Of a stretch of DNA of 64,000 nucleotides, positions 208 through 62,333 are shown one piece after another. Source of the stretch: Candidatus Palauibacter sp. (GTDB lineage: Bacteria > Gemmatimonadota > Gemmatimonadetes > Palauibacterales > Palauibacteraceae); assembly GCF_965222475.1 (NCBI RefSeq), contig NZ_CBDCUB010000008.1, forward strand, positions 619,020 to 683,019. The letters are read 5' to 3'. The stretch's first letter is position 1. Each line of letters begins with the position of its first letter. The position numbers and the translations under genes are program-made. Below the pieces are notes generated by a model, which saw only the letters and a list, made by a program, of their open reading frames with translations, did not search any database and was not told the DNA's origin.

Positions 208-2451
<2,244 letters not shown>

Positions 2452-7412: not shown

Positions 7413-8180
7413 ATGCCGACGCGCGCGGAGATTAAGGCCTGGCGGTCGCTGCACCGCGGAAAGGGACGCCGGGAAACCGGGTGTTTCCTGGCGGAGGGGC
7501 GGCGGCTCGTCGGCGAGATGCTCGAGTGGCCGGGCCGCACGGTTGCGGTGCTGCACGCCGATGCGGCGGGCGGCGAACCGGCACTGGAGGTGCTGCTCGC
7601 GCACGCGGTGACGCGGGGTGTACGTACGGAAGCGGTGCCCGAAGCGATCATCCGGACGCTGGCCGATGCCGCCACGCCCCAGCCCATTCTCGCGATCGGC
7701 GAGGTGCCGGCGTACAGCTGGGATGACGTTGGCGGCGGCGCGATCGTGCTTCTCGACGGCGTGCAGGATCCGGGCAATGTCGGCACTCTCGTGCGCACCG
7801 CGCTCGCGCTCGGGGCCGCCGCCGTGATCGGCGTCGGGGAGGCCGCCGATCCCTGGGGGCCGAAGGCGCTGCGGGCCTCGGCGGGAGCGTCGTTCCGCGG
7901 CCCCGTCTTCCGGACGGACACCCGGGATGCCGTGGAGCGGCTGGCCGGGCGCGGGATCCCGATCTGGGTCGCCGCGGCAGGCGCCCCGCCGCTCGAGCGT
8001 CCACCGTCCGGGTCGGTTGCTCTCGCGCTGGGGAGCGAGGCGCGCGGCGTCTCGGCTCCCCTCCTCGCCGCCGCCCACCGCGTCGTCTCCCTGCCGCTCG
8101 CCCGGGGTGTGGAATCGCTGAACGTGGCCTCGGCGGGCGCCATCCTGCTCGATCGCATGCTGAGGCGGACGCCCGATTGA
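7413..8180 (+). CDS. TrmH/SpoU-family RNA 2'-O-ribose methyltransferase
   Basis: SPOUT motifs [34 protein letters not shown] and [20 protein letters not shown]. Confidence 0.8.
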
Positions 8181-8941
8181 CTGAAGCCGTGACCACGGGC
8201 GTGGCCGCACTGCTCGGCGCGGTGGCCGGCTCTTTCCTCAATGTGTGCATCGCGCGCATGCCCGCCGGGGACAGCGTCCTGCGCCCAGGCAGCCGTTGCC
8301 CGGCGTGCCACGCGACGATCCGCTGGCGCGACAACCTCCCCGTCCTCTCCTGGATCCTGCTGCGGGCGCGCTGTCGCGACTGCGGCGGCCGCATCTCCTG
8401 GCGCTACCCCGCGATCGAACTTGCAACGGCCCTCGCCTGGGGTGGCATGGTCTGGATGTACGGCACATCCGTCACCGCCCTGACGGGTGCGGTCCTGTTC
8501 ACGCTCCTCCTCGCGATCGCGGTCATCGACGCGCGCCACTACGTGATCCCCGATCCCCTCTCGCTCGGCGGGTGCGCCGCGGGCCTCGCCCTCTCGGCGC
8601 TTCCGGGGTCGACGCCGCCGCTCGGGGCGATCGCGGGCGCGGTGCTCGGGTTCGGACTTCTCTACGTCGTGGCGTGGCTGGGCGAGAAGGCGTTCCGGAA
8701 GCCGGCGCTCGGAGGCGGCGACGTGAAGATGATGGCGATGGTGGGGGCGTTCCTCGGCCCCGGCGGCGCACTCCTCACGATCTTCCTGGGGTCCCTCGCC
8801 GGGTCCCTCGCCTTCGGTCCCGTCTCACTCAGGACGGGAAAGCCCGTGCCCTTCGGGACCTTCCTCGCGCTCGGCGCGGCGGTGGCATTCCTGTTCGGCG
8901 GCGTTCTCTTCGATTGGTATCTGCGCCTGTCGACACCTTGA
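8177..8941 (+). CDS. pilD: type IV prepilin leader peptidase / N-methyltransferase (A24 family)
   Basis: N-terminal TM helix, tetracysteine zinc motif ([33 protein letters not shown]) and catalytic Asp regions (…[11 protein letters not shown]…[16 protein letters not shown]…). Start overlaps the trmH-family stop. Confidence 0.85.
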
Positions 8942-9023: not shown

Positions 9024-9848
9024 TCATCGGCCAGGCCGACGCGGGGGGTAGCCGCGGGGAATGCTGCCCATGAGGCCACACAGGTCATGGTAGGTGGCGG
9101 AGTCCACCGGCAGCGTCCGCAGCGCCGCGTCCGTCGAGGCCCCGTCAAACTTGGCTTCACCGTAGATGATGTCGTTGACCACGCACCAGGTCGATGCCTT
9201 CCCGGCCTCCCGGGATGCCGGCGGGCCGGCTGCCTCCATTGCGGCGAGGAGGTAATCCAGGCCCCGGCCCTCGGGATCCGCCAGATAGATCGCGTATAGG
9301 TCTGAGCTGGCGCGCGGTCCGCTGGGCATGGATTCGTCAAAGTCCGCTGCTTGGGAGCGGGTGTAGATGGCGGCGATCGGATCGTTCGTCTCGTCCCCTG
9401 CCAAGCCGACCATGTGCCTCTCGTACAACCCCACGAGAAGGTCGAACGCGGGCTCGTATGGGACCCCCTCCTCCGGCACGACTGCCCGAATCAACGCAGA
9501 ACGCGCATCGAACCGAACCCCAAAAGGGTATCCCGTGTCCGCCGCCAGGCGGACCAGCGACTGCGCGAGCGCGTCCAGCTCGGCTTGGGGCCGGGGCTCG
9601 AAAAGCTGCGTAAGCACGGCCGCGACCGGCGCGGCGGGGGAAGCCTCCGGATCGCGGCGTTCGACGAGCTGTCGGAGCGCGGTCTCCGGCGTCGGGATGC
9701 GCAGCTCTCCGCCCTCGTCCAGAACCATGGCCCACCGCTGGGCCCATGACTGAGGCCTGGCGTCCCCATCTCGCGCCTGTGCCGCAGCGGGCCACGGCGC
9801 CAAGGCGCTTTGGAGCACTGCCACAACCAACATCGCATCTCGCCTCAT
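9024..9848 (-). CDS. secreted hypothetical protein, module component B1 (paralog of 11107..12093)
   Basis: 274 aa with N-terminal signal-peptide-like segment (MRRDAMLVVAVLQSALAPWPAAAQA). Shares motifs with B2 (…IYLADPEGRGLDYLLAAMEA… versus …VYSADPEGRGRDYVRALFEA…). No family recognised. Confidence 0.5.
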   Translation of the reverse strand: MRRDAMLVVAVLQSALAPWPAAAQARDGDARPQSWAQRWAMVLDEGGELRIPTPETALRQLVERRDPEASPAAPVAAVLTQLFEPRPQAELDALAQSLVRLAADTGYPFGVRFDARSALIRAVVPEEGVPYEPAFDLLVGLYERHMVGLAGDETNDPIAAIYTRSQAADFDESMPSGPRASSDLYAIYLADPEGRGLDYLLAAMEAAGPPASREAGKASTWCVVNDIIYGEAKFDGASTDAALRTLPVDSATYHDLCGLMGSIPRGYPPRRPGR

Positions 9849-9894
9849 GCCTCAGCTCCTCGTCTACTGCAGAGAATCCCTCGCGCCGGACCCG

Positions 9895-11094
9895 TCACGG
9901 GCACGCCGTCCCGGTGTGGCCCAGAGCCGTCGGTCTGTCGAGCACCCAGCCTCCCGCCCATCGGTAGTGCCAGAACGGCGCGGCTGCGGTCGCCTCAGAC
10001 ACGTTGAAATCCATCCCTTCGCGCATAGCTCTCTCCACTTCGGTCAAGAGCATTCTAGCTTGCTCCGTGGCGGTTTCGAGTAACCCTTCGAGCCTTTCCA
10101 ACTTGTCTCGAATATTCTGGGAGGCCCGGCAGCTCTCATACCTCGATGCGTGCTGCTCCTCGTGCTGCTTAACGGGATCATGGAACGACGAACGGGCCGT
10201 CCCGGTGCCACATTCCTCGTTCACCTCGTAAACCGTGGCCGGATCGCCCAGTTGCGCGTGGTTCCCGCAATGCTGCCGGAGTTCGTGCGCCGTCACGACG
10301 CCAGTAGTCTCATAAGCCCAGGGTCGTTCCGGGTTGGTCGGCTTAAGATCCGGATGTATGTAGAACTGCGCGACTATGGTCTCCGCCGGCCAGGAGATGT
10401 AGCGCGTGCCCTGCCACGGTCCCGTTCCCGAGCCCGCAACCAGCCCCGGGATGTTGACGGCGAACCGCCCCCATTCGTCACTTGCCCAAGATTCTGTGTG
10501 CGGAGTAGCGTACACAGGAATGGTACCTGCAGCAGGAAAGGCCCACATCCCTGCCCCCACCTCGACGATCCCGGTCATCGTCGTGTCGGCGACTTCCGGT
10601 CCCGAGATGCTGACGGTCATGCTGATCGTGCTCGTGGCCGTTCCCTCCCAACTGGTGAAGTCCTCTTCGGTATCGGCGGGGCGCGCCACGCCCGCTCCCG
10701 TCACCCAGGCGTAGTTGAGGTCGGAGAGCGTCACGGCGGTGTCGGTCGTCGTCACGTAGCAACCCCCGGTTGAGCCACGCGGCGGTGAGTTGCAGTTCAA
10801 GTTGAACGCCACCACCCTGGATCCCTCGTCGCCGTCGTCGCCGCCCTTGGGGTTGGTCCCGCCGAGACCGATGGGGAAGCCCGTGCCCTTCGGGACCTTC
10901 CTCGCCCTCGGCGCGATCATGGCATTCCTATTCGGGGACACCCTCTTCGATTGGTATCTGCGCCTCCGGATTCCGATGGCCAATCCGTCGTAAGATTCCG
11001 GGTCTCTCTCCGGCGTCCCGGATCTGGAGGCGAAGATGCAGCCAGCTAAGGCGCGTGACGGGGCGCTGGTCCCCAATAGGGTCTGGGCCCGCAA
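9895..11094 (-). CDS. HExxH-motif protein A1, 5'-truncated paralog of 12074..13951. The annotated first ~75 codons are antisense to a pilD 3' fragment and are probably not native.
   Basis: Shares the IGLGGTNPKGGDDGDEGSRV…RGSTGGC.VTTTDTAVTL…TST.SMTVSISGPEVADTTMTGIVEV core and a C-terminal FHDPVKQHEEQH (HExxH) with A2. Homology to A2 begins only at about 10870. Upstream of that the ORF is complementary to a copy of the pilD 3' end. Confidence 0.45.
   Translation of the reverse strand: MRAQTLLGTSAPSRALAGCIFASRSGTPERDPESYDGLAIGIRRRRYQSKRVSPNRNAMIAPRARKVPKGTGFPIGLGGTNPKGGDDGDEGSRVVAFNLNCNSPPRGSTGGCYVTTTDTAVTLSDLNYAWVTGAGVARPADTEEDFTSWEGTATSTISMTVSISGPEVADTTMTGIVEVGAGMWAFPAAGTIPVYATPHTESWASDEWGRFAVNIPGLVAGSGTGPWQGTRYISWPAETIVAQFYIHPDLKPTNPERPWAYETTGVVTAHELRQHCGNHAQLGDPATVYEVNEECGTGTARSSFHDPVKQHEEQHASRYESCRASQNIRDKLERLEGLLETATEQARMLLTEVERAMREGMDFNVSEATAAAPFWHYRWAGGWVLDRPTALGHTGTACP
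10868..10975 (+). repeat. ~108-bp copy of the pilD 3' end (about 90% identical to 8830-8940); tandem-duplication junction
   Basis: Encodes [31 protein letters not shown], near-identical to the PilD C-terminus at 8830-8940, but lies inside the 5' part of the minus-strand A1 ORF. Confidence 0.6.
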
Positions 11095-11106
11095 CCAAGC
11101 CGCATC

Positions 11107-12093
11107 TTACATGATCCCAGGATAACAGAGCTCCTTGAACACCTCGGGATCGGGCGGATCGGCGACGTCGTCGGGCCTGCGGGGGCGGGTGGCTCCGGGC
11201 TCGTACATGAGGAACCGTCCCGCCTCGCACCACACGGACGGGTTGTAGGGTTTCGGGCACTCCGGCAGCGCGAGCCACGCCTCATGCCCCTCCTTGGAGC
11301 TAGCCGTGATCTCCCCATCCGGGCCCATGACCAACGGGACCAACCCCCGGCGGCACACTGGGGGCGGAAGCGGCTCGCTCGCCTCGAACAGGGCGCGCAC
11401 GTAGTCCCGGCCCCGCCCCTCGGGGTCAGCCGAGTAAACACTGATGAGGGCCCCAACCAGTCCGGAAGCGGCGAGCGCGGGGCCCGTGCGATAAGCCTCG
11501 CGGAACGGATCGTCCCCGCCGCCGGCCAGCAGCCGGGCCGCGCGCGTATCGTAAACGCGCACCAGCGCGTCGAACGCCTCCGGGTAGGGCGTGCCCCGCA
11601 GGTAGGATGCGTGGCGCTGCGCCGTCGACAGCGTGGCGTAGGCCTTGGATCGGACCAGGTACTGGTCGGACGAGTACTCCGCGTCGATCAGCAGAATGTC
11701 GGCGAGGGCGTCCACCAGCGCCTCCTGCTCCGCCTGCGTGCGGGGACCGTGCTCCTCCCTCAGCAACGCGACGGCGGGCGAGTTGTCCGGGTCCGGATCG
11801 TTCAGCAGGCTCCAATCGCCGCGTAGCGCCCGCAGCGCCTCGTCCGTGGTCGGCACCCGCCAGCCTCCTCCCTCGTCCAGCACGAGCCCCGGCGCCCACG
11901 CCCGCCCCCGCTCCCCGGGCTCCCGCTCCTGCGCCGGTAACGCTTCCGGCGCGAGAAGCCCGGTCCACGCGACCGCCGCCAATACTCTCCAAATCGATCC
12001 CGTAGCCATGTGCCCTCCTCCTCCGAATGGTCCGCTGGTCGCCGGCGCCGAAGTGCACTGCGGAGACTTCGGACTACCGGCAGGGACCCGCAC
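11107..12093 (-). CDS. secreted hypothetical protein, module component B2 (paralog of 9024..9848). Probable start is the internal Met at about 12009.
   Basis: A signal-peptide-like MATGSIWRVLAAVAWTGLLAPEALPAQ follows an unlikely 28-aa leader. Paralogous motifs shared with B1. Confidence 0.5.
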   Translation of the reverse strand: MRVPAGSPKSPQCTSAPATSGPFGGGGHMATGSIWRVLAAVAWTGLLAPEALPAQEREPGERGRAWAPGLVLDEGGGWRVPTTDEALRALRGDWSLLNDPDPDNSPAVALLREEHGPRTQAEQEALVDALADILLIDAEYSSDQYLVRSKAYATLSTAQRHASYLRGTPYPEAFDALVRVYDTRAARLLAGGGDDPFREAYRTGPALAASGLVGALISVYSADPEGRGRDYVRALFEASEPLPPPVCRRGLVPLVMGPDGEITASSKEGHEAWLALPECPKPYNPSVWCEAGRFLMYEPGATRPRRPDDVADPPDPEVFKELCYPGIM

Positions 12094-13951
12094 GGTGCCC
12101 TTGGATGGGGAGCGTGAGGTACACCCAGGTTGTCCCGCGGCCGCCGCGCTGCGTGGGGGTTACGCCCGGCGTATAGTCCCAATAATCCCACACGAGCTGG
12201 CTGGTGAAGCCCGCAACGGCGCCGCCAGTGGAGCCCAAGACCTTGTCCCTATAATACGTGCGCCATGCACGCTCCAAGTCCTGTTTCAACGTCTGCCGGT
12301 CGCCGCTTACGAGGGTCTCCATGTCCGCTTGGTCCCCTCTCGCCGCCTGGGCGCTAAGGCAGGCGGCGATGGCGTCTTGGTGGTCATTCTCGTGCCCGAT
12401 CAAATCCCTCTCGAACGCTGTCAGGTTCGGCCCCGAACCGCAATTCGTGTTCACCGTGACGAGGTTCGCGCGGGCGGGCAGGGCAGTGGCATGGCAATGC
12501 TGGTTTGCGGGGAGCAGGTTCGCGCCCGGGTATCCACGGTCCTGCGGGTCCAGGTCGTTGTGGACTACGATCGTGGCCGGAATCGTCAGGCTGCCCACGC
12601 CATGCTGGCCGGCCCACGGACCGCTACCGTCAAAGACGGCGTCGTCGGTGAGCGCCGACGTGTGTGTGGGGGGTTCGTACATGCCGAACGTGCCGTCCGT
12701 CCAGGTACCCGTATACGAGACTGAGGAACTCAGCGACACCACCGACGAGGTGCGTGCAGTCACCTCGACGATCCCGGTCATCGTCGTGTCGGCGACTTCC
12801 GGTCCCGAGATGCTGACCGTCATGCTGAGCGTGCTCGTGGCTCTTCCCTCCCACCTGGTGTAGTCCGTTCGGCCCCCTATGGGGCGCGACACGCCCGCTC
12901 CGGTCCGCCAGGCATAGGTAAGGTCGGCAAGCGTCACGGCCGTGTCGGTCGTCGTAACGCGGCAACCTCCGGTCGAGCCACGGCTCGGTGACGAGCAGTT
13001 CAATCGGAACGCCGCGACCCTGGATCCCTCGTCGCCGTCGTCGCCGCCCTTGGGGTTGGTCCCGCCGAGACCGATGCGGCCCGTGCCCGGATTCCGGGGA
13101 GGGATAAGGGTCCCCCATTCCGTGCCCTCGCCGACGAAGTTTAGCACGCAGTCGTCTTCAAATACATCATAGTCCAACCCGACCGGGCACGTCCGTCCCG
13201 TCGTCACGAGGATCTCCTTCATCTGGGCAGGTTCGCACTCCGTTTCGGGTTCGGGGTCGTAGCAGCCCTCGCGCTGCGCCGCGAGCAATGATCGGGGCGC
13301 GGCCCAGCCCGACGCCAGCCTCCAGAGCTCAGCCCACGGTCCGCCCCCCGACGGTCGCGCCGAGGCCCACACCTTGTCGGGCAGCGGAATCCCCACGTCC
13401 TTGAGAATCGCCTTCACGCTCCCGGTCGCCTCCTGACTCGCGCGCTCGGTCCCGGGGAGCAGGCAAACGGCCAGAACGGCCACCCGCTCGGGAAGCACCT
13501 CCTTGCCACCGTCGGACTTGGGCCGGCTCACGGTAACCAGCACCTTGTATTGCTGGCCCCACACCTCGTCGGTGTCACCCTTCGCCTCGGGGCTGAACTC
13601 CAGCACGTACTTCCGGGAGACGTAGCTTCCCGTGGCGGTCCCGAAGTAGAACTCGCACCCCGGCCCGCCGATCCCCTGGATGACCGTCTGCCACGACGGC
13701 AGACTGTCCACATCGGCGCTGAGCCCGGCCTGCGACACGACCGGTGCCCGGGCCGACGCATCCCCACCGGTGGGGGCGGGCTCCCAAAAAAAGTCGGAGC
13801 ACCCCAGGAGTCCTGCCCCCGATGCTCCCGCCACAAGGAATGCCTGCCCGATCCGCAGCCTGAAACGCGGAGGCGCTTCTCGTGGCACTGAAAGTCGGGA
13901 GGGACGACGGCGAAACGACGAGGAGAGACCAGCGCGCGGCCACCTGAACAT
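12074..13951 (-). CDS. HExxH-motif putative lipoprotein A2 (full-length paralog of A1); possible zinc-metallopeptidase-like secreted protein
   Basis: 625 aa. N-terminal hydrophobic stretch ends in LLGC (lipobox-like). Conserved core shared with A1. C-terminal …CGSGPNLTAFERDLIGHENDHQDAIAAC carries an HExxH motif aligned with HEEQH of A1. Confidence 0.5.
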   Translation of the reverse strand: MFRWPRAGLSSSFRRRPSRLSVPREAPPRFRLRIGQAFLVAGASGAGLLGCSDFFWEPAPTGGDASARAPVVSQAGLSADVDSLPSWQTVIQGIGGPGCEFYFGTATGSYVSRKYVLEFSPEAKGDTDEVWGQQYKVLVTVSRPKSDGGKEVLPERVAVLAVCLLPGTERASQEATGSVKAILKDVGIPLPDKVWASARPSGGGPWAELWRLASGWAAPRSLLAAQREGCYDPEPETECEPAQMKEILVTTGRTCPVGLDYDVFEDDCVLNFVGEGTEWGTLIPPRNPGTGRIGLGGTNPKGGDDGDEGSRVAAFRLNCSSPSRGSTGGCRVTTTDTAVTLADLTYAWRTGAGVSRPIGGRTDYTRWEGRATSTLSMTVSISGPEVADTTMTGIVEVTARTSSVVSLSSSVSYTGTWTDGTFGMYEPPTHTSALTDDAVFDGSGPWAGQHGVGSLTIPATIVVHNDLDPQDRGYPGANLLPANQHCHATALPARANLVTVNTNCGSGPNLTAFERDLIGHENDHQDAIAACLSAQAARGDQADMETLVSGDRQTLKQDLERAWRTYYRDKVLGSTGGAVAGFTSQLVWDYWDYTPGVTPTQRGGRGTTWVYLTLPIQGHRAGPCR

Positions 13952-13967
13952 CCATCCTCCCGGGCAG

Positions 13968-14101
13968 AAGGGGACTCACGCCCGGGACTCACGCCCGGGA
14001 CTCACGCCCGGGACTCACGCCCGGGACTCACGCCCGGGACTCACGCCCGGGACTCACGCCCGGGACTCACGCCCGGGACTCACGCCCGGGACTCACGCCC
14101 G
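13968..14101. repeat. tandem array of about 10 copies of a 13-bp unit (CCCGGGACTCACG), 17 bp upstream of the A2 start codon
   Basis: A perfect head-to-tail …gggactcacg cccgggactcacg cccgggactcacg… runs across about 134 bp. Each unit contains a CCCGGG palindrome. The unit length is not a multiple of 3. Confidence 0.85.
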
Positions 14102-14208
14102 AAGATGCTGCGACAGGCCCCCCTCAAACAAGGGAACGGACAGGGGACGACCGGAGCGGGATCGATGAGAAGACCAGGTGGGCCGGGATCCGCCGGACGG
14201 ATGCCGCG

Positions 14209-14905
14209 CTAATCGCGGCGGATCCGGGCTCGCGTCACCTGCGTGTCGGTGCTCGCCACGACCTGGATCCGCACATCGCCGTGCTCGACCACCTCTCCCG
14301 CCTCGGGCACCCGGCCCAGCTCGCCCAGAAGGAAGCCGTTCAGCGACCGGTGCTCGGCCACGGGGAACGACGTGTCGAAAAAGTCGTTGATCTCCCGCAG
14401 TTCGGCGCCGCCATCCACCGCGATCTCGTCCCGCCGCAGCTGGATGATGGGCTCCGGCGGTACATCCGTTTCGTCGACAATGTCGCCGACCAGCTCCTCG
14501 AGGATGTCCTCGAGCGTCACGAGCCCGTCGAGCCCGCCGTGTTCATCCACCACGAGCCCCATGTGCACGCGCCGCGCGCGGAACTGCTCGAGCAGTTCGA
14601 TGAGAATGATCGTGTCCGGCACGAAGTAGGGTTCGCGGGCGAAGCTGGAGAGCGTCAGGTTCCGCCGGCCGCCGAGAAGCGCTTGGTACGCCTCGGTGCG
14701 GTACAGCACGCCGGTCACGTCATCGAGCGACTCGCCGTACACCGGGATCCGGCTGAAGCGCACGTCCGCCAGTGCCTCCGCGATGTCTCCGAGCCTGCGC
14801 GAATCCTCCCAGCCAGGATGTCGACGCGGGGCGTCATGATCTCCCGGGCACGCAGACGGTCGAGAGTGAACACCCGGTCGATGAACTGCCGTTCTCAACG
14901 TGTGC
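14209..14905 (-). pseudogene. truncated, frameshifted paralog of corC (CBS-pair plus CorC_HlyC C-terminal two-thirds only, no DUF21 membrane domain)
   Basis: About 80% nt identity to 15644-16330 of the intact corC (…RIPVYGESLDDVTGVLYRTEAY…VDEHGGLDGLVT…EDILEE…). Homology starts abruptly at about 14905, and a 1-nt deletion near 14810 shifts the frame relative to corC. Confidence 0.6.
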
Positions 14906-15607
14906 ATCTCCCGCATGCCCGCCGGCGAGAGCGTGGTCCGCCCGCGCAGCCGCTGCCCGGCCTGCGGCGCGACGGTCCGCTGGTTCGACAACATCCCCGT
15001 CGTCTCCTGGGTGCTCCTGCGCGCGAGGTGCCGCGACTGTGCGGCCCGGATCTCCTGGCGCTACCCGGCGGTCGAACTCGCCACGCTGGGCATCTGGGTC
15101 GGCATGGCGTGGCAGTACGGGGCGTCGGCCGCCGCCCTCGGCGGCGCGGTCCTGTTCACGCTGCTGCTCGGGATCGCGGTCACCGACGCCTTGCACTACG
15201 TGATCCCCGATCCGCTCTCCCTCGGCGGGCTCGCGTCGGGGCTCGCCGCGTCGCTCCTGCCGGGCCTCACGACGCCGCTCGCCGCGGCCGGCGGCGCGGC
15301 ATTCGGCTTCGGGCTCCTGTTCGTCGTGGGACGCCTCGGCGAGAAGGTTCTCGGAAAACCCGCCCTCGGCGGAGGCGACGTGAAGCTGATCGCGATGGTC
15401 GGGGCCTTCCTGGGCCCGGCCGGCGTCCTCCTCACCATCTTCCTGGGTGCGCTGGCCGGCTCCGTCGTCTTCGGGCCGGTCTCGCTCCGGACCGGGAAGC
15501 CGGTTCCGTTCGGGACGTTCCTCGCTCTCGGCGCCGCCGTCTCGTTCCTGTTCGGCGATGCGCTGATCGACGCCTATCTGCGCCTCGCCACGTCCGCGAG
15601 CGGGTGA
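14900..15607 (+). CDS. prepilin peptidase paralog lacking the N-terminal about 20 residues (first TM helix); possibly non-functional
   Basis: [51 protein letters not shown]… is about 75% identical to PilD at 8177-8941. Homology begins at …FLNVCI… at about 14905, exactly where the corC-derived sequence ends. Confidence 0.6.
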   Translation: MCISRMPAGESVVRPRSRCPACGATVRWFDNIPVVSWVLLRARCRDCAARISWRYPAVELATLGIWVGMAWQYGASAAALGGAVLFTLLLGIAVTDALHYVIPDPLSLGGLASGLAASLLPGLTTPLAAAGGAAFGFGLLFVVGRLGEKVLGKPALGGGDVKLIAMVGAFLGPAGVLLTIFLGALAGSVVFGPVSLRTGKPVPFGTFLALGAAVSFLFGDALIDAYLRLATSASG

Positions 15608-15643
15608 CGGGGAGCGGCTGGCCGCGCCCGCCGATCCGGGCGG

Positions 15644-16867
15644 CTAGCGCCGGCGGATGCGTGCGCGGGTCACCTGCGTGTCGGTGGTCTCGACCACATG
15701 GATCCGCACGTCGCCGTGATCCAGGACCTCGCCCGCTTCCGGAACCCGTCCGAGTTCACCGAGCAGAAACCCGTTGAGGGAGCGGTGCTCGAGCACCGGG
15801 AACGAAGTTCCGAAAAAGTGGTTGATCTCCCGAAGTTCCGTCGCCCCGTCCGCGAGGATTTCGTTCCGGCCGAGCGCGACGATCGACTCCCCCGGCTCGT
15901 CCGTCTCGTCCTCGATGTCGCCGACGACTTCCTCCAGGATGTCCTCCATCGTCACGAGTCCGTCGAGCCCGCCGTGTTCGTCGACGACCAGCGCCATGTG
16001 CACCCGGCGCGCCCGGAACTGCTCCAAAAGTTCGATCAGGGTGATCGTCTCGGGCACGAAGTAGGGTTCCCGGGCGAGCTTCGAGAGCGGGACATCCCGC
16101 TGCCCGTCGAGGAGCGCCCGGTACGCCTCGGTCCGGTACAGCACGCCCGTGACGTCATCCAGCGAGTCGCCGTACACGGGGATCCGGCTGAAGCGGAGGT
16201 CGGACAGTTCGTCCTCGATGTCGCCGAGGCGGCGCGAGTCCTCCCACGCGAGGATGTCGACCCGCGGGGTCATGATCTCCCTCGCACGCAGCCGGTCCAG
16301 GGTGAACACCCGGTCGATGAACTGGCGCTCGTGCGCCTCGATGTCGCCCGCCTGCTGGCCGAGGCGCGCCATGGCGCGGATCTCCCACTCGCTCACGTGC
16401 GTGGCCGACTCGGCCTCGGGAAGCACCCGCCCGACGAGCCATTCCAGGGGTAGCACCACCGGCAGGAGGAAACGGCCGAGCCCCCCGATGAAGGGAGCGG
16501 CGAGGAGGGACAGGCGTTCCGCGTTGCGCGCCGCGAAGCTCTTCGGCGTGATCTCCCCGAAGATGAGGACGAGAAGCGTCATCACGCCCGTGGCGAGACC
16601 CACCCCGGCGGAGCCGAACAGCTCGGTCGCGGTGTAGGTGGCGACGGCGGCGGCGCCGATGTTGGCGACGTTGTTCCCGATCAGGATCGTGATGAGGAGC
16701 CGCTCGGGGTGCTGTTTCAGCTTCTCGAGCGAGCGCGACCCGGGGCGCCGCTCCTGCGCGAGCGCCCGGACCCTCGTTTCACCGAGCGAAAAGAGCGCGA
16801 TCTCGGTGCCGGAGAAGAAGCCCGACAGCACGAGGAGGAGCGCGAGGAGCGCGAGGGTGCCGATCAC
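15644..16867 (-). CDS. corC: CorC/HlyC-family transporter-associated protein (DUF21 TM domain, CBS pair, CorC_HlyC)
   Basis: 407 aa with four N-terminal TM helices, CBS-pair region (…REIMTPRVDILAW…RIPVYGDSLDDVTGVLY…) and C-terminal transporter-associated domain. Confidence 0.85.
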   Translation of the reverse strand: MIGTLALLALLLVLSGFFSGTEIALFSLGETRVRALAQERRPGSRSLEKLKQHPERLLITILIGNNVANIGAAAVATYTATELFGSAGVGLATGVMTLLVLIFGEITPKSFAARNAERLSLLAAPFIGGLGRFLLPVVLPLEWLVGRVLPEAESATHVSEWEIRAMARLGQQAGDIEAHERQFIDRVFTLDRLRAREIMTPRVDILAWEDSRRLGDIEDELSDLRFSRIPVYGDSLDDVTGVLYRTEAYRALLDGQRDVPLSKLAREPYFVPETITLIELLEQFRARRVHMALVVDEHGGLDGLVTMEDILEEVVGDIEDETDEPGESIVALGRNEILADGATELREINHFFGTSFPVLEHRSLNGFLLGELGRVPEAGEVLDHGDVRIHVVETTDTQVTRARIRRR

Positions 16868-60092: not shown

Positions 60093-62333
60093 ATGAACGA
60101 ATCCTACACGCGGGCGCCGCACAGGCATCCAGCCGCCGATACGGTACGACACACCGCGGCGCTCCTCATCGACTTCGACAACGTCACCATGGGGATCCGG
60201 TCCAACATGGGCCAGGAACTCCGCAATTTCCTCGACTCCGACATCATCCGCGGCAAGGTCGCGGTCCAGCGCGCGTACGCGGACTGGCGCAGATATCCCC
60301 AGTACATCGTGTCGCTGTCCGAGGCCTCGGTGGACCTGATCTTCGCACCCGCCTACGGATCGTCGAAGAAGAACGCGACAGACATCCGGCTCGCTATCGA
60401 CGCGCTCGAGCTGGTGTTCACGCGCCCCGAGATCGAGACCTTCATCCTCCTCTCGGGAGACTCCGATTTTTCGAGCCTCGTGCTGAAGCTGAAGGAGTAC
60501 GGCAAGTACGTGATCGGCGTGGGACTGCAGGAGTCGACTTCCGATATCCTGGTCCAGAACTGCGACGAGTACTACAGCTACAACCGCCTGTCGGGGCTCA
60601 CCTCCGCCGACGAGATCCAGACGGACAAGCGCGATCCTTGGGAACTGACGACGCGGGCGGTCACGCGGATGGCCGAGCGCGGCGACGTGATGCGATCGGA
60701 CCGGCTCAAGCAGGTCATGCTGGAGATGGACCCCGGTTTCGACGAGCGTTCCGCCGGTTTCTCCAGGTTCAACCGTTTCCTCGGCGAAGCCGCGCAGCGC
60801 GAAGGGATCGTGCTCCGCAAGCGGGAGAACGGACAGTACGAGGTCGCCCCTCCGGCCGGCGGCGCGTCGCCCGCCGACGGGAACGCCGGACGCCGGAGCA
60901 AGACGGCTTCGGACGGAGAGAGTGCGCAGCGCAGCCGGAACCGGCGGGGACGTCGGGGAGGTTCCGGCCGGGGCCGCTCTCGGTCCCCGGCCTCGAAGCC
61001 CGCGTCGGAACCGGCGCCGTCGCCCGAGGCGAAGGCGTCGGACGACGGCCTGCAGGGCGCCTACGACGCGCTGGCGCGCGCGGTCGGCGACCTGTCTCCG
61101 GGCGGGGCTCCGGTCCGCGACTCCATGGCCAAGCGGAAGCTGCTCGAGTACGACAGCTCCTTTGACGAGGGGAGCGTCGGCTTCAGCAAGTTCAGCCTCT
61201 TCCTTCGCGCCGCCCACGAGGCGGGGGTCATCCGGATGACGCGGCACGACGACGGCAACCACTACCTGACGCCGGCCGGGGCCGGGGCCGGGGAGAAGCC
61301 GGGGCAGCAGAAGCGGGCGCAGCAGAAGCGGGCGCAGCAGGCACAGCAGAAGCCGGACGGCGGGCGAGGGCGGTCTCCGTTCTCGGCGGCCGCGGCCGCC
61401 GCTCGGAAGACGCTGGGTCGTCTCCGGCGAGGGCCGGATGCCGAAGAGGGACCGGCGGAGCCGATGGATCGCCCGGATGCGCCTCGGGCAGCGGAGGCCC
61501 CGCGGGACCGCGGGACCGCGTCCGCCGCGAGCCGCGGTACGCGACAGCGTTCTCGACAGGACCGCGGATCGCCCCGGCGCGACCACCCGCGACCGCAGGG
61601 CTCGCGAGCGAAAGAGGAGCCCGCTCCGGCCGCCGCCGCCGGGGCGCCGAAGCCCGCGAGTTCGCCTCCGGAGCGCAAGAGCCAGCCTCCGGAGCAGAAG
61701 AGCCAGCCTCCGGAGCAGAAGAGCCAGCCTCCGGAGCAGAAGAGCCAGCCTCCGGAGCAGAAGAGCCAGCCGGCCGTGCGGAAGAGCCAGCCGGCCGTGC
61801 GGAAGAGTCGGTCGGCGGCGCCCCGGCGCGAACCCGCGGCCCGCCCGCAAGAACCCGCAGCCCGTCCCGCCGAGCCCGTTGGGCAACAGAGTGAGCCCGG
61901 GGGCTCGGAGAAGCCGGCTCCCCGGCGCACTCTGGGGCGCTACCGGTCGGGGTCGCGCGGCCGCGCCCCCGCGCCGCGGACGGCCGGAAGGGCGAGCGGC
62001 CCCCGCATCGGGCCGATCTCCGATGACGAAGTGCCTTCCGATGGCGCGAAGAAGGAGGCGGAGCAGGAGACGAAGAGGGCGGCGGCGACGCGCGAGCGGG
62101 GCCGGACGCGGCGGAAGCCCGAAGGACCGCGGAAGCCCGTCGCCGGGCCTGTCGTTCACATGGTCCGGAACTACGCCGGCGTCGGGAAGCGCACCGCGGA
62201 GGTGCTGTTCGATCATTTCGGCGACCAGTTGTTCGACGTCATCGACTCCGACCCGCAGCGTCTGACCGAGGTGCTCTCCGGGGCCCGCGCGAAGATCGTC
62301 CGGGAGGCCCGTCGCGCCGAGCTCGAAAGCTGA
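60093..62333 (+). CDS. NYN-domain plus tandem OST-HTH/LOTUS-domain protein with a long low-complexity repeat region and a C-terminal HhH-like segment
   Basis: NYN/LabA-like: …ALLIDFDNV…DIRLAIDALELVFTRPEIETFILLSGDSDFSSLVLKLKEYGKYVIGVG…. Two OST-HTH-like segments (…DRLKQVMLEMDPGFDERSAGFSRFNRFLGEAAQREGIVL…; …KRKLLEYDSSFDEGSVGFSKFSLFLRAAHEAGVI…). Then a Pro/Ser/Arg/Gln-rich region with (PPEQKSQ)x4 and (PAVRKSQ)x2, and a C-terminal …VGKRTAEVLFDHFGDQLFDVIDSDPQRLTEVL…. Confidence 0.7.
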   Translation: MNESYTRAPHRHPAADTVRHTAALLIDFDNVTMGIRSNMGQELRNFLDSDIIRGKVAVQRAYADWRRYPQYIVSLSEASVDLIFAPAYGSSKKNATDIRLAIDALELVFTRPEIETFILLSGDSDFSSLVLKLKEYGKYVIGVGLQESTSDILVQNCDEYYSYNRLSGLTSADEIQTDKRDPWELTTRAVTRMAERGDVMRSDRLKQVMLEMDPGFDERSAGFSRFNRFLGEAAQREGIVLRKRENGQYEVAPPAGGASPADGNAGRRSKTASDGESAQRSRNRRGRRGGSGRGRSRSPASKPASEPAPSPEAKASDDGLQGAYDALARAVGDLSPGGAPVRDSMAKRKLLEYDSSFDEGSVGFSKFSLFLRAAHEAGVIRMTRHDDGNHYLTPAGAGAGEKPGQQKRAQQKRAQQAQQKPDGGRGRSPFSAAAAAARKTLGRLRRGPDAEEGPAEPMDRPDAPRAAEAPRDRGTASAASRGTRQRSRQDRGSPRRDHPRPQGSRAKEEPAPAAAAGAPKPASSPPERKSQPPEQKSQPPEQKSQPPEQKSQPPEQKSQPAVRKSQPAVRKSRSAAPRREPAARPQEPAARPAEPVGQQSEPGGSEKPAPRRTLGRYRSGSRGRAPAPRTAGRASGPRIGPISDDEVPSDGAKKEAEQETKRAAATRERGRTRRKPEGPRKPVAGPVVHMVRNYAGVGKRTAEVLFDHFGDQLFDVIDSDPQRLTEVLSGARAKIVREARRAELES
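61676..61810 (+). repeat. in-frame tandem repeats inside 60093..62333: about 4.5 copies of 21 bp (CCGGAGCAGAAGAGCCAGCCT) followed by 2 copies of 24 bp (…GCCGTGCGGAAGAGCCAGCCG)
   Basis: …gagcgcaagagccagcctccggagcagaagagccagcctccggagcagaagagccagcctccggagcagaagagccagcctccggagcagaagagccagccggccgtgcggaagagccagccggccgtgcggaag…. Confidence 0.8.

Follow-up and report, generated by a model that had tools for sequence, protein, structure and literature searches.

A slippage-prone 13-bp tandem repeat in the putative leader of a fast-evolving lipoprotein gene of Candidatus Palauibacter

RESULTS AND DISCUSSION

A candidate contingency locus upstream of A2

The lipoprotein gene A2 of Candidatus Palauibacter is preceded by a tandem array of ten perfect 13-bp units, and the number of these units differs between related assemblies. 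We favour, with a probability of about 0.55, the reading in which this array, a VNTR prone to slippage, belongs to the leader of the fast-evolving A2 gene and constitutes a contingency locus of the hmw1A type, in which copy number would influence expression. Three properties that characterize such loci were found. Identical tandem units (10.1 perfect copies) lie in promoter or 5'-UTR position, close strains differ by whole units (10 versus 6, as the sole indel), and the arrays are associated with genes for surface or secreted proteins, as indicated by a lipobox, signal peptides, predicted membrane segments and, in L010, FG-GAP repeats. A regulatory consequence of the array at A2 is plausible.

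The features discussed below are the following (coordinates are those of the window, that is, the whole stretch of 64,000 nucleotides that was analysed):

12074..13951, minus strand: A2, predicted lipoprotein of 625 aa (lipobox LLG-C, Cys51)
13955..13964, minus strand: ribosome-binding region CCCGGGAGGA, with the Shine-Dalgarno sequence GGGAGGA at 13955..13961
13971..14101, minus strand: tandem array of 10 perfect 13-bp units (Tandem Repeats Finder, raw sequence and cross-strain polymorphism)
14102..14131, minus strand: promoter-like block, with a putative role suggested by hexamer likeness and by equivalents at other loci
14186..14225, minus strand: 10-bp inverted repeat (GGATCCGCCG / CGGCGGATCC) spanning the stop codon of the corC fragment (centroid structure)
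14209..14994, minus strand: corC fragment, the upstream neighbour, with CBS and CorC_HlyC domains and no CNNM domain

Tandem Repeats Finder called the array on the minus strand with 10.1 copies, a period of 13, 100% matches, 0 indels and a score of 262, and reading of the raw sequence gave the same array. This bears out the roughly ten perfect head-to-tail copies with CCCGGG that had been noticed in an earlier, sequence-only reading of this DNA. The unit on the sense (minus) strand is GGGCGTGAGTCCC, and a CCCGGG palindrome is formed at each unit junction. Exact matches to the 13-mer occur 10 times in the window, all within the array, and any match elsewhere has at least one mismatch; the count of 10 units is the one in the assembly. 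The geometry given earlier needed correction. The array starts at 13971 and not at 13968, the gap to the A2 ATG (13951..13949, minus strand) is 19 nt and not 17 bp, and the interval from the A2 start to the corC-fragment stop codon (14209..14211) measures 257 bp, of which the array, with 131 bp, takes up about half rather than most. Its location in promoter or 5'-UTR position holds, at 19 nt from the ATG with the Shine-Dalgarno sequence between. The G+C content around the array is ∼67-72%. The region is also repeat-poor otherwise, as had been stated: the only other strong tandem repeat in the window, at 61664..61878, consists of imperfect 21- and 63-bp repeats (∼6 copies, 85-93% matches), is overlapped by long ORFs on both strands and is probably a coding repeat.

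RefSeq annotates a shorter A2 of 554 aa. On sequence grounds the upstream ATG, which gives 625 aa, is favoured: it has a strong Shine-Dalgarno sequence, the lipobox is conserved, and the paralogues likewise have an N-terminus that is open and conserved. The C-terminal half of A2 carries an invariant HExxH. Sequence searches of Pfam, NCBIfam and the PDB gave no match, an AlphaFold2 model built from 10 sequences was unusable (pLDDT 29.9), and exact look-ups of the A2 protein of the window and of P0004 gave no match. Only ten clusters of the A2 family were found among 5.8 billion proteins, and every cluster with a named source was from Palauibacter; the family appears to be fast-evolving and to be found only in Candidatus Palauibacter.

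Copy number changes by whole units between assemblies

It had been proposed that the array is prone to slipped-strand expansion and contraction, with a count of units across isolates as the check. Length polymorphism was indeed seen: against 10 units in the window, the A2 locus contains 6 units in L017 (a 52-bp indel), 4 in L003 and 5 in L011. The loci compared, labelled L001 to L019, include the following (all copy-number comparisons are between assemblies):

A2 locus, downstream of the corC fragment, window: 10 units; reference
A2 locus, L017: 6 units; 15 mismatches in 5,878 nt relative to the window
A2 locus, L003: 4 units; about 95-97% flank identity to the window
A2 locus, L011: 5 units; 98.2-98.7% identical to L003, both flanks deleted
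Downstream of full-length corC, L013: 4 units, 3 of them CTTGAGT variants; A2-homologue region 81% identical to L011
AAA_14/DUF4143 gene upstream, L007, L015 and L016: 3, 3 and 9 units; about 90-95% identical
Divergent PQQ dehydrogenase gene upstream, L002 and L018: 4 and 2 units; 89% identical
SNF transporter or IS110 upstream, L012, L014 and L019: 1 degenerate unit (GGCGTGAGCCCC); 95-98% identical

L017 is colinear with positions 16003..10074 of the window, and the sole indel, of exactly four units, falls inside the array. In L011, TAGCG on the side of the corC-fragment stop codon is joined to AGTCCC, and the other side of the array is fused to GGGGAGGATGGATG; this allele has neither the ∼105-bp upstream block nor the CTTCTGCCC spacer. 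The array of L016 begins with four variant units of 14 bp and continues with five of 13 bp, the units within either sub-block being homogeneous. The single degenerate unit is unchanged in the three genomes that carry it. Among arrays, copy number ranges from 2 to at least 11. The whole-unit changes, the perfect homogeneity, the amplification of variants in blocks and the stability of the single unit all point to slippage within the array. Comparison of the assemblies shows arrays of at least two units to gain or lose whole units, by what appears to be slipped-strand mispairing, much faster than point mutation proceeds.

Could the array be an artefact of assembly, or else a coding repeat? Short-read assemblies do break in arrays (L005 has an N-gap there, and in L010 the contig ends), and a plus-strand ORF of 162 aa crosses the array. 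However, independent assemblies hold arrays of the 13-bp unit at the A2 site, which makes an artefact unlikely, and the plus-strand ORF is antisense to the A2 start. Moreover, a 13-bp unit present in 4, 5, 6 or 10 copies would shift any reading frame. We give these two explanations hardly any weight. The newer assemblies have contig names (ctgN_Nx_l, ptgNNNl) that resemble those given by long-read assemblers; if this is correct, their unit counts should be reliable.

A further tract of variable length was noted at an A2 paralogue with a single-unit leader, ∼20 nt upstream of that leader. It is a poly-C tract of C13 in L012 (∼1420..1432), C9 in L014 (∼1423..1431) and C13 in L019 (∼1421..1433), the coverage of L019 being only 2x. 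The length difference could be due to a second mutable tract or to long-read homopolymer error.

One unit is reused upstream of unrelated genes for exported proteins

The search for other loci with the same 13-mer array, suggested by the sequence-only reading, was productive. When one genome per prokaryotic species was scanned, the exact two-unit pattern was found at 9 loci, all from Candidatus Palauibacter or a Gemmatimonadota MAG. The scan of metagenomes gave one contig, which breaks inside an array of at least 11 units, and the scan of viral contigs gave no match. In at least five Candidatus Palauibacter genomes, arrays of the 13-bp unit lie at several loci that are unlinked, and the Palauibacter genomes contain at least 6 distinct intergenic array loci with variable copy number.

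Wherever an array was found, it lies on the sense strand of the downstream gene; its distance to the ATG, measurable in 14 rows, is 11-31 nt. Each array-bearing locus precedes a gene for a signal-peptide protein, a lipoprotein or a membrane protein. A2 paralogues follow the array at L002, L003, L007, L011, L013 and L015-L018. The product at L004 is a lipoprotein whose N-terminal domain resembles that of A2 and whose match to Peptidase_M15_3 is borderline (23.0 bits, the cut-off being 23.2 bits), and that at L010 is a signal-peptide protein with FG-GAP repeats. At L001, L005, L006, L008 and L009 the products are unrelated small secreted or membrane proteins, most of them with a signal peptide or membrane segments. 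The genes that flank the array loci are unrelated housekeeping genes. Given non-homologous downstream genes and unrelated flanking genes, the shared module ends at the start codon and is reused. The conserved leader module comprises the promoter-like block, at least one unit and CCCGGGAGG followed by the ATG; within the genus it is found ahead of several genes for secreted or membrane proteins that are unrelated to one another. The motif CCCGG[G/A]AGG is kept ahead of the ATG at all array-bearing loci save L010 and L011.

In a rival reading, the units would be iterated binding sites for a regulator, an alternative already named in the sequence-only reading. The regulator would bind DNA or RNA and control a secreted-protein regulon, and copy number would set its occupancy, roadblock strength or titration. 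This would account for the conservation of the unit over unlinked loci and over species, for its link with a specific upstream block and for the single unit carried by the non-expanded loci. However, no candidate regulator is linked to the loci, whose neighbours have unrelated housekeeping roles, and direct reading shows the unit to be only weakly palindromic beyond GGG...CCC. In addition, the variants CTTGAGT and GTGTGAGT and the 14-bp form have been amplified as readily as the standard unit. We consider this reading improbable.

A more far-reaching proposal concerns the genus as a whole. The 13-nt unit would be a Palauibacter-specific cis-regulatory leader element that marks a secreted or surface regulon and moves from one non-homologous gene to another as a cassette of promoter block, unit and CCCGGGAGG; the array would be an amplifiable anti-Shine-Dalgarno or protein-binding module, in which a copy number set by slippage tunes the translation of symbiosis-related effectors. 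We advance it as speculation, with a low likelihood.

Two transposase genes were observed near such cassettes. A DDE_Tnp_1 gene at L004 (2004..3431) is ∼1.4 kb or less from the array-led gene, and an IS110 gene at L019 (83..1333) is within about 170 bp of the unit-led gene. Both fit with the array or unit cassettes sitting in plastic genome regions.

The promoter-like block lies wholly upstream of the array

At A2, the array sits between the promoter-like block and the ribosome-binding site. The block contains a -35-like hexamer TTGTTT (14126..14131), an 18-nt spacer and a -10-like hexamer CATCTT (14102..14107), which ends 1 nt ahead of the array. At all loci with TTGACA- or TTGTTT-type blocks, the -10-like hexamer ends one to a few nucleotides before the first unit. 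The TTGTTT-N18-CAT C(T/G)T block is shared by the window, L003, L017 and L004, a TTGACA-N17-CAYNTT block is present at four other loci, and a second class of upstream block is common to L001, L007, L015 and L016. A pattern written for the promoter-like blocks matched only upstream of arrays when 181 kb were searched on both strands. A sigma-70 promoter scan of 13500..15000 found none, the A2 block falling below the threshold, and the weakness of its -10-like hexamer is a point against the leader model. L011 has no promoter-like block at all, its array adjoining the upstream stop codon; either the block is dispensable there, or this allele is expressed differently or not at all.

The possibility that the array itself contains a promoter was considered and set aside: judged by eye, and with the spacing correct, the unit agrees with either sigma-70 hexamer at no more than 2 of 6 positions.

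According to the earlier proposal, each unit gained or lost would move an upstream promoter element by 13 bp. The change by whole units stands, but the promoter shift calls for refinement: with the -35- and -10-like hexamers wholly upstream of the array, unit changes should alter the length or structure of the leader and not the geometry of the promoter. As the array ends 19 nt from the ATG and the upstream gene is divergent at L002 and L018, the promoter must lie upstream of the array or within it, and the array is then either transcribed or itself part of the promoter. Since the unit does not resemble the sigma-70 hexamers and the conserved block ends at the array, our best guess is that transcription would start in the first unit, so that the whole array would be transcribed. 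The putative 5'-UTR placement is based on the abutting promoter-like block, the 19-nt gap and the divergent gene at L002 and L018; the absence of the block from L011 counts against it.

These observations also bear on the possibility that the array is an intercistronic spacer comparable with MIRU, in an operon formed by the corC fragment and A2, instead of the leader of a separate transcript. The two genes share a strand, the array of L011 directly follows the corC-fragment stop codon, and the A2-locus array, read directly, has a TGA once per unit and thereby closes all three frames every 39 nt. Against this, the upstream gene is divergent at L002 and L018 as well as at the single-unit loci L012 and L014, where the leader module must carry its own promoter. 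In the window, moreover, a hairpin spans the stop codon of the corC fragment. This hairpin (14186..14225) is terminator-like and has no U-run, the stretch that holds it folds no better than its shuffles (z = +0.89), and the arm at 14186..14195 falls in the segment absent from L011; a scan of 13500..15000 found no intrinsic terminator. All in all, an operon spacer seems very improbable.

Predicted structure of the leader and a possible mechanism

The A2 leader is predicted to fold into a rod of 6-bp CCCGGG:CCCGGG helices (-97.3 kcal/mol), with a modest z of -1.85; as the units are identical, covariation is not informative. The predicted MFE drops by about 8 kcal/mol per unit. A CCCGGG palindrome at 13959..13964 overlaps the Shine-Dalgarno sequence, and the last unit pairs with it in the predicted fold. 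A search of Rfam gave nothing at the gathering threshold, the region 13850..14300 yielding only chance-level matches with E above 3.

Equilibrium folding gave a mean unpaired probability of the Shine-Dalgarno sequence of 0.00-0.21 with 0 to 3 units and of 0.25-0.39 with 4 to 14 units. Above ∼4 units, the dependence on copy number is weak and non-monotonic, with no trend. Simple occlusion of the ribosome-binding site is therefore unsupported. A switch based on the odd or even parity of CCCGGG was likewise discarded, as the oscillation is only 0.31 versus 0.35. A G-quadruplex was judged unlikely by reasoning: GGG every 13 nt would give 10-nt loops and would compete with CCCGGG duplexes.

The mechanism that we propose for the contingency-locus reading would run as follows. 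Transcription would start at the -10-like hexamer adjoining the array, and the whole array would become 5'-UTR. Each unit would add a CCCGGG:CCCGGG helix of ∼-8 kcal/mol, and with it a UCCCGGG segment whose complement, CCCGGGA, is present in the ribosome-binding site. Copy number could thereby tune the structure, stability or translation of the mRNA, and the outcome would be a heritable and reversible variation in A2 output, as in a contingency locus of the hmw1A type. If copy number matters, the folding predictions make occlusion a less likely route than the processing or stability of the mRNA, its folding during transcription or the binding of a factor.

The array may instead be a neutral by-product. 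A leader motif with CGGG/CCCGGG microhomology would then be slippage-prone, with no meaningful effect on the expression of A2. The perfectly homogeneous units look like the result of recent slippage rather than of selection on sequence, arrays with anything from 2 to at least 11 copies are tolerated, and the small effect of copy number on Shine-Dalgarno accessibility above ∼4 units points the same way. However, the unit keeps its place and orientation before non-homologous secreted-protein genes in several species, which is hard to explain without a constraint on the leader, and a strongly structured insert of 26-130 nt beside a ribosome-binding site is unlikely to be free of effect. Neutrality is a possible, though rather doubtful, account.

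Comparison with known repeat systems

In Haemophilus influenzae, hmw1A and hmw2A carry a 7-bp 5'-UTR repeat, (ATCTTTC)n, between the promoter and the start codon (PMC12721329; PMC8262952). The hmw1A tract is transcribed, the long 5'-UTR hairpin is cleaved by RNase III, and expression is inversely proportional to the length of the tract (PMC12721329). This repeat is the closest known counterpart of the A2 array: in both cases a repeat whose unit is not a multiple of 3 lies upstream of the start codon of a surface-protein gene and varies in copy number between strains. In contrast with hmw1A, the A2 unit is 13 bp long and G+C-rich, contains a CCCGGG palindrome and is present in 2 to at least 11 copies, and Palauibacter reuses one unit at several unlinked loci before unrelated genes. 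The two systems also differ in phylum (Gemmatimonadota for A2) and lifestyle.

The MIRU-VNTR units of Mycobacterium tuberculosis are 40-100 bp long, are found inside operons and can carry overlapping start and stop codons. As in that system, one repeat family occupies many intergenic loci of a high-G+C genome in one orientation and with locus-specific copy number, and one and the same unit was found here at multiple intergenic loci with variable copy number. However, the Palauibacter unit is 13 bp long and not 40-100 bp, it lies directly upstream of a Shine-Dalgarno sequence, and its place is not consistently intercistronic within operons, as some loci are behind a divergent neighbour.

Upstream repeats also create contingency loci in Neisseria, Helicobacter and Mycoplasma, for example the TAAA repeat of nadA, the poly-G tract of porA and the poly-A tract of vlp. 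Tracts of this type have units of 1-5 nt and change the spacing between the -35 and -10 elements or the phasing of regulator sites. The A2 array shares with them the signs of slipped-strand mutation in non-coding DNA upstream of surface-protein genes, which in those systems yields expression variants, but differs in that both promoter-like hexamers of A2 are upstream of the array.

Iterons or replication-origin 13-mers were excluded in view of the G+C-rich sequence of the array, its neighbours (a lipoprotein gene and the corC fragment) and the presence of several copies per genome. A CRISPR array was excluded because the units are head-to-tail without spacers.

Contingency loci are best known from host-adapted pathogens. 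In the literature, the 13-mer was found only in unrelated human-sequence contexts. The searchable literature contains no paper joining sponge symbionts with phase variation through tandem repeats and no earlier description of the 13-mer or of repeat-based variation in Palauibacter, and the description of the Palauibacterales does not mention repeats. Candidatus Palauibacter is an uncultured lineage reported from sponges, corals and marine sediments (PMC10469786). The A2 array would be a clear contingency-locus candidate in this lineage, and the exported-protein family that it precedes is itself undergoing reshuffling. What the present analysis adds is the reuse of one 13-bp unit, as part of a conserved leader module, at several loci in an uncultured genus of Gemmatimonadota. 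The array loci would constitute a candidate set of variably expressed surface or secreted proteins, which may mediate interaction with the host or with competitors. Moreover, one 13-bp unit at several loci would provide a multi-locus VNTR typing scheme for uncultured Palauibacter, and unit counts from long reads would make it possible to track strain-level dynamics.

Organization of the A2 neighbourhood

The label of corC fragment given to the upstream neighbour in the sequence-only reading proved correct: it combines CBS and CorC_HlyC domains without a CNNM domain, and its DNA is an 81%-identical copy of the 3' part of the full corC gene at 15644..16867. The window also holds 23S and 5S rRNA genes. 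The duplicated 3' part of corC (14209..14994 against 15644..16867, both on the minus strand, 81% identical) is frameshifted in the fragment near the CBS region, and the fragment occurs also in L003, L011 and L017. The prepilin peptidase gene likewise has a paralogue (8177..8941 and 14892..15607, both on the plus strand, 76-77% DNA identity). The prepilin peptidase and corC copies represent an old duplication, and the A-gene cassette sits between the duplicated parts.

On the minus strand, 9024..13951 carries first A2 (625 aa) and the gene of a 328-aa partner (11107..12093), then the ORF 'A1' (9895..11094) and the gene of another partner, of 274 aa (9024..9848); the identity between the two partners is 34%. 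The mismatches between the window and L017 are unevenly spread, with 14 of the 15 within 11442..11761 (∼320 bp, in the gene of the 328-aa partner), and this cluster suggests either that the tract was exchanged by recombination or that diversifying selection acts locally. Over residues 75-399, A1 shares 98% identity with the C-terminal half of the A2 orthologue of relatives, but only 45% with the A2 of the window. Relative to L003, the window has an extra 2.2 kb (about 10888..12761). These alignments are consistent with a new A2 C-terminal half and its partner having displaced the old one, and the A2 locus looks like the site of a module swap in the style of polymorphic toxins.
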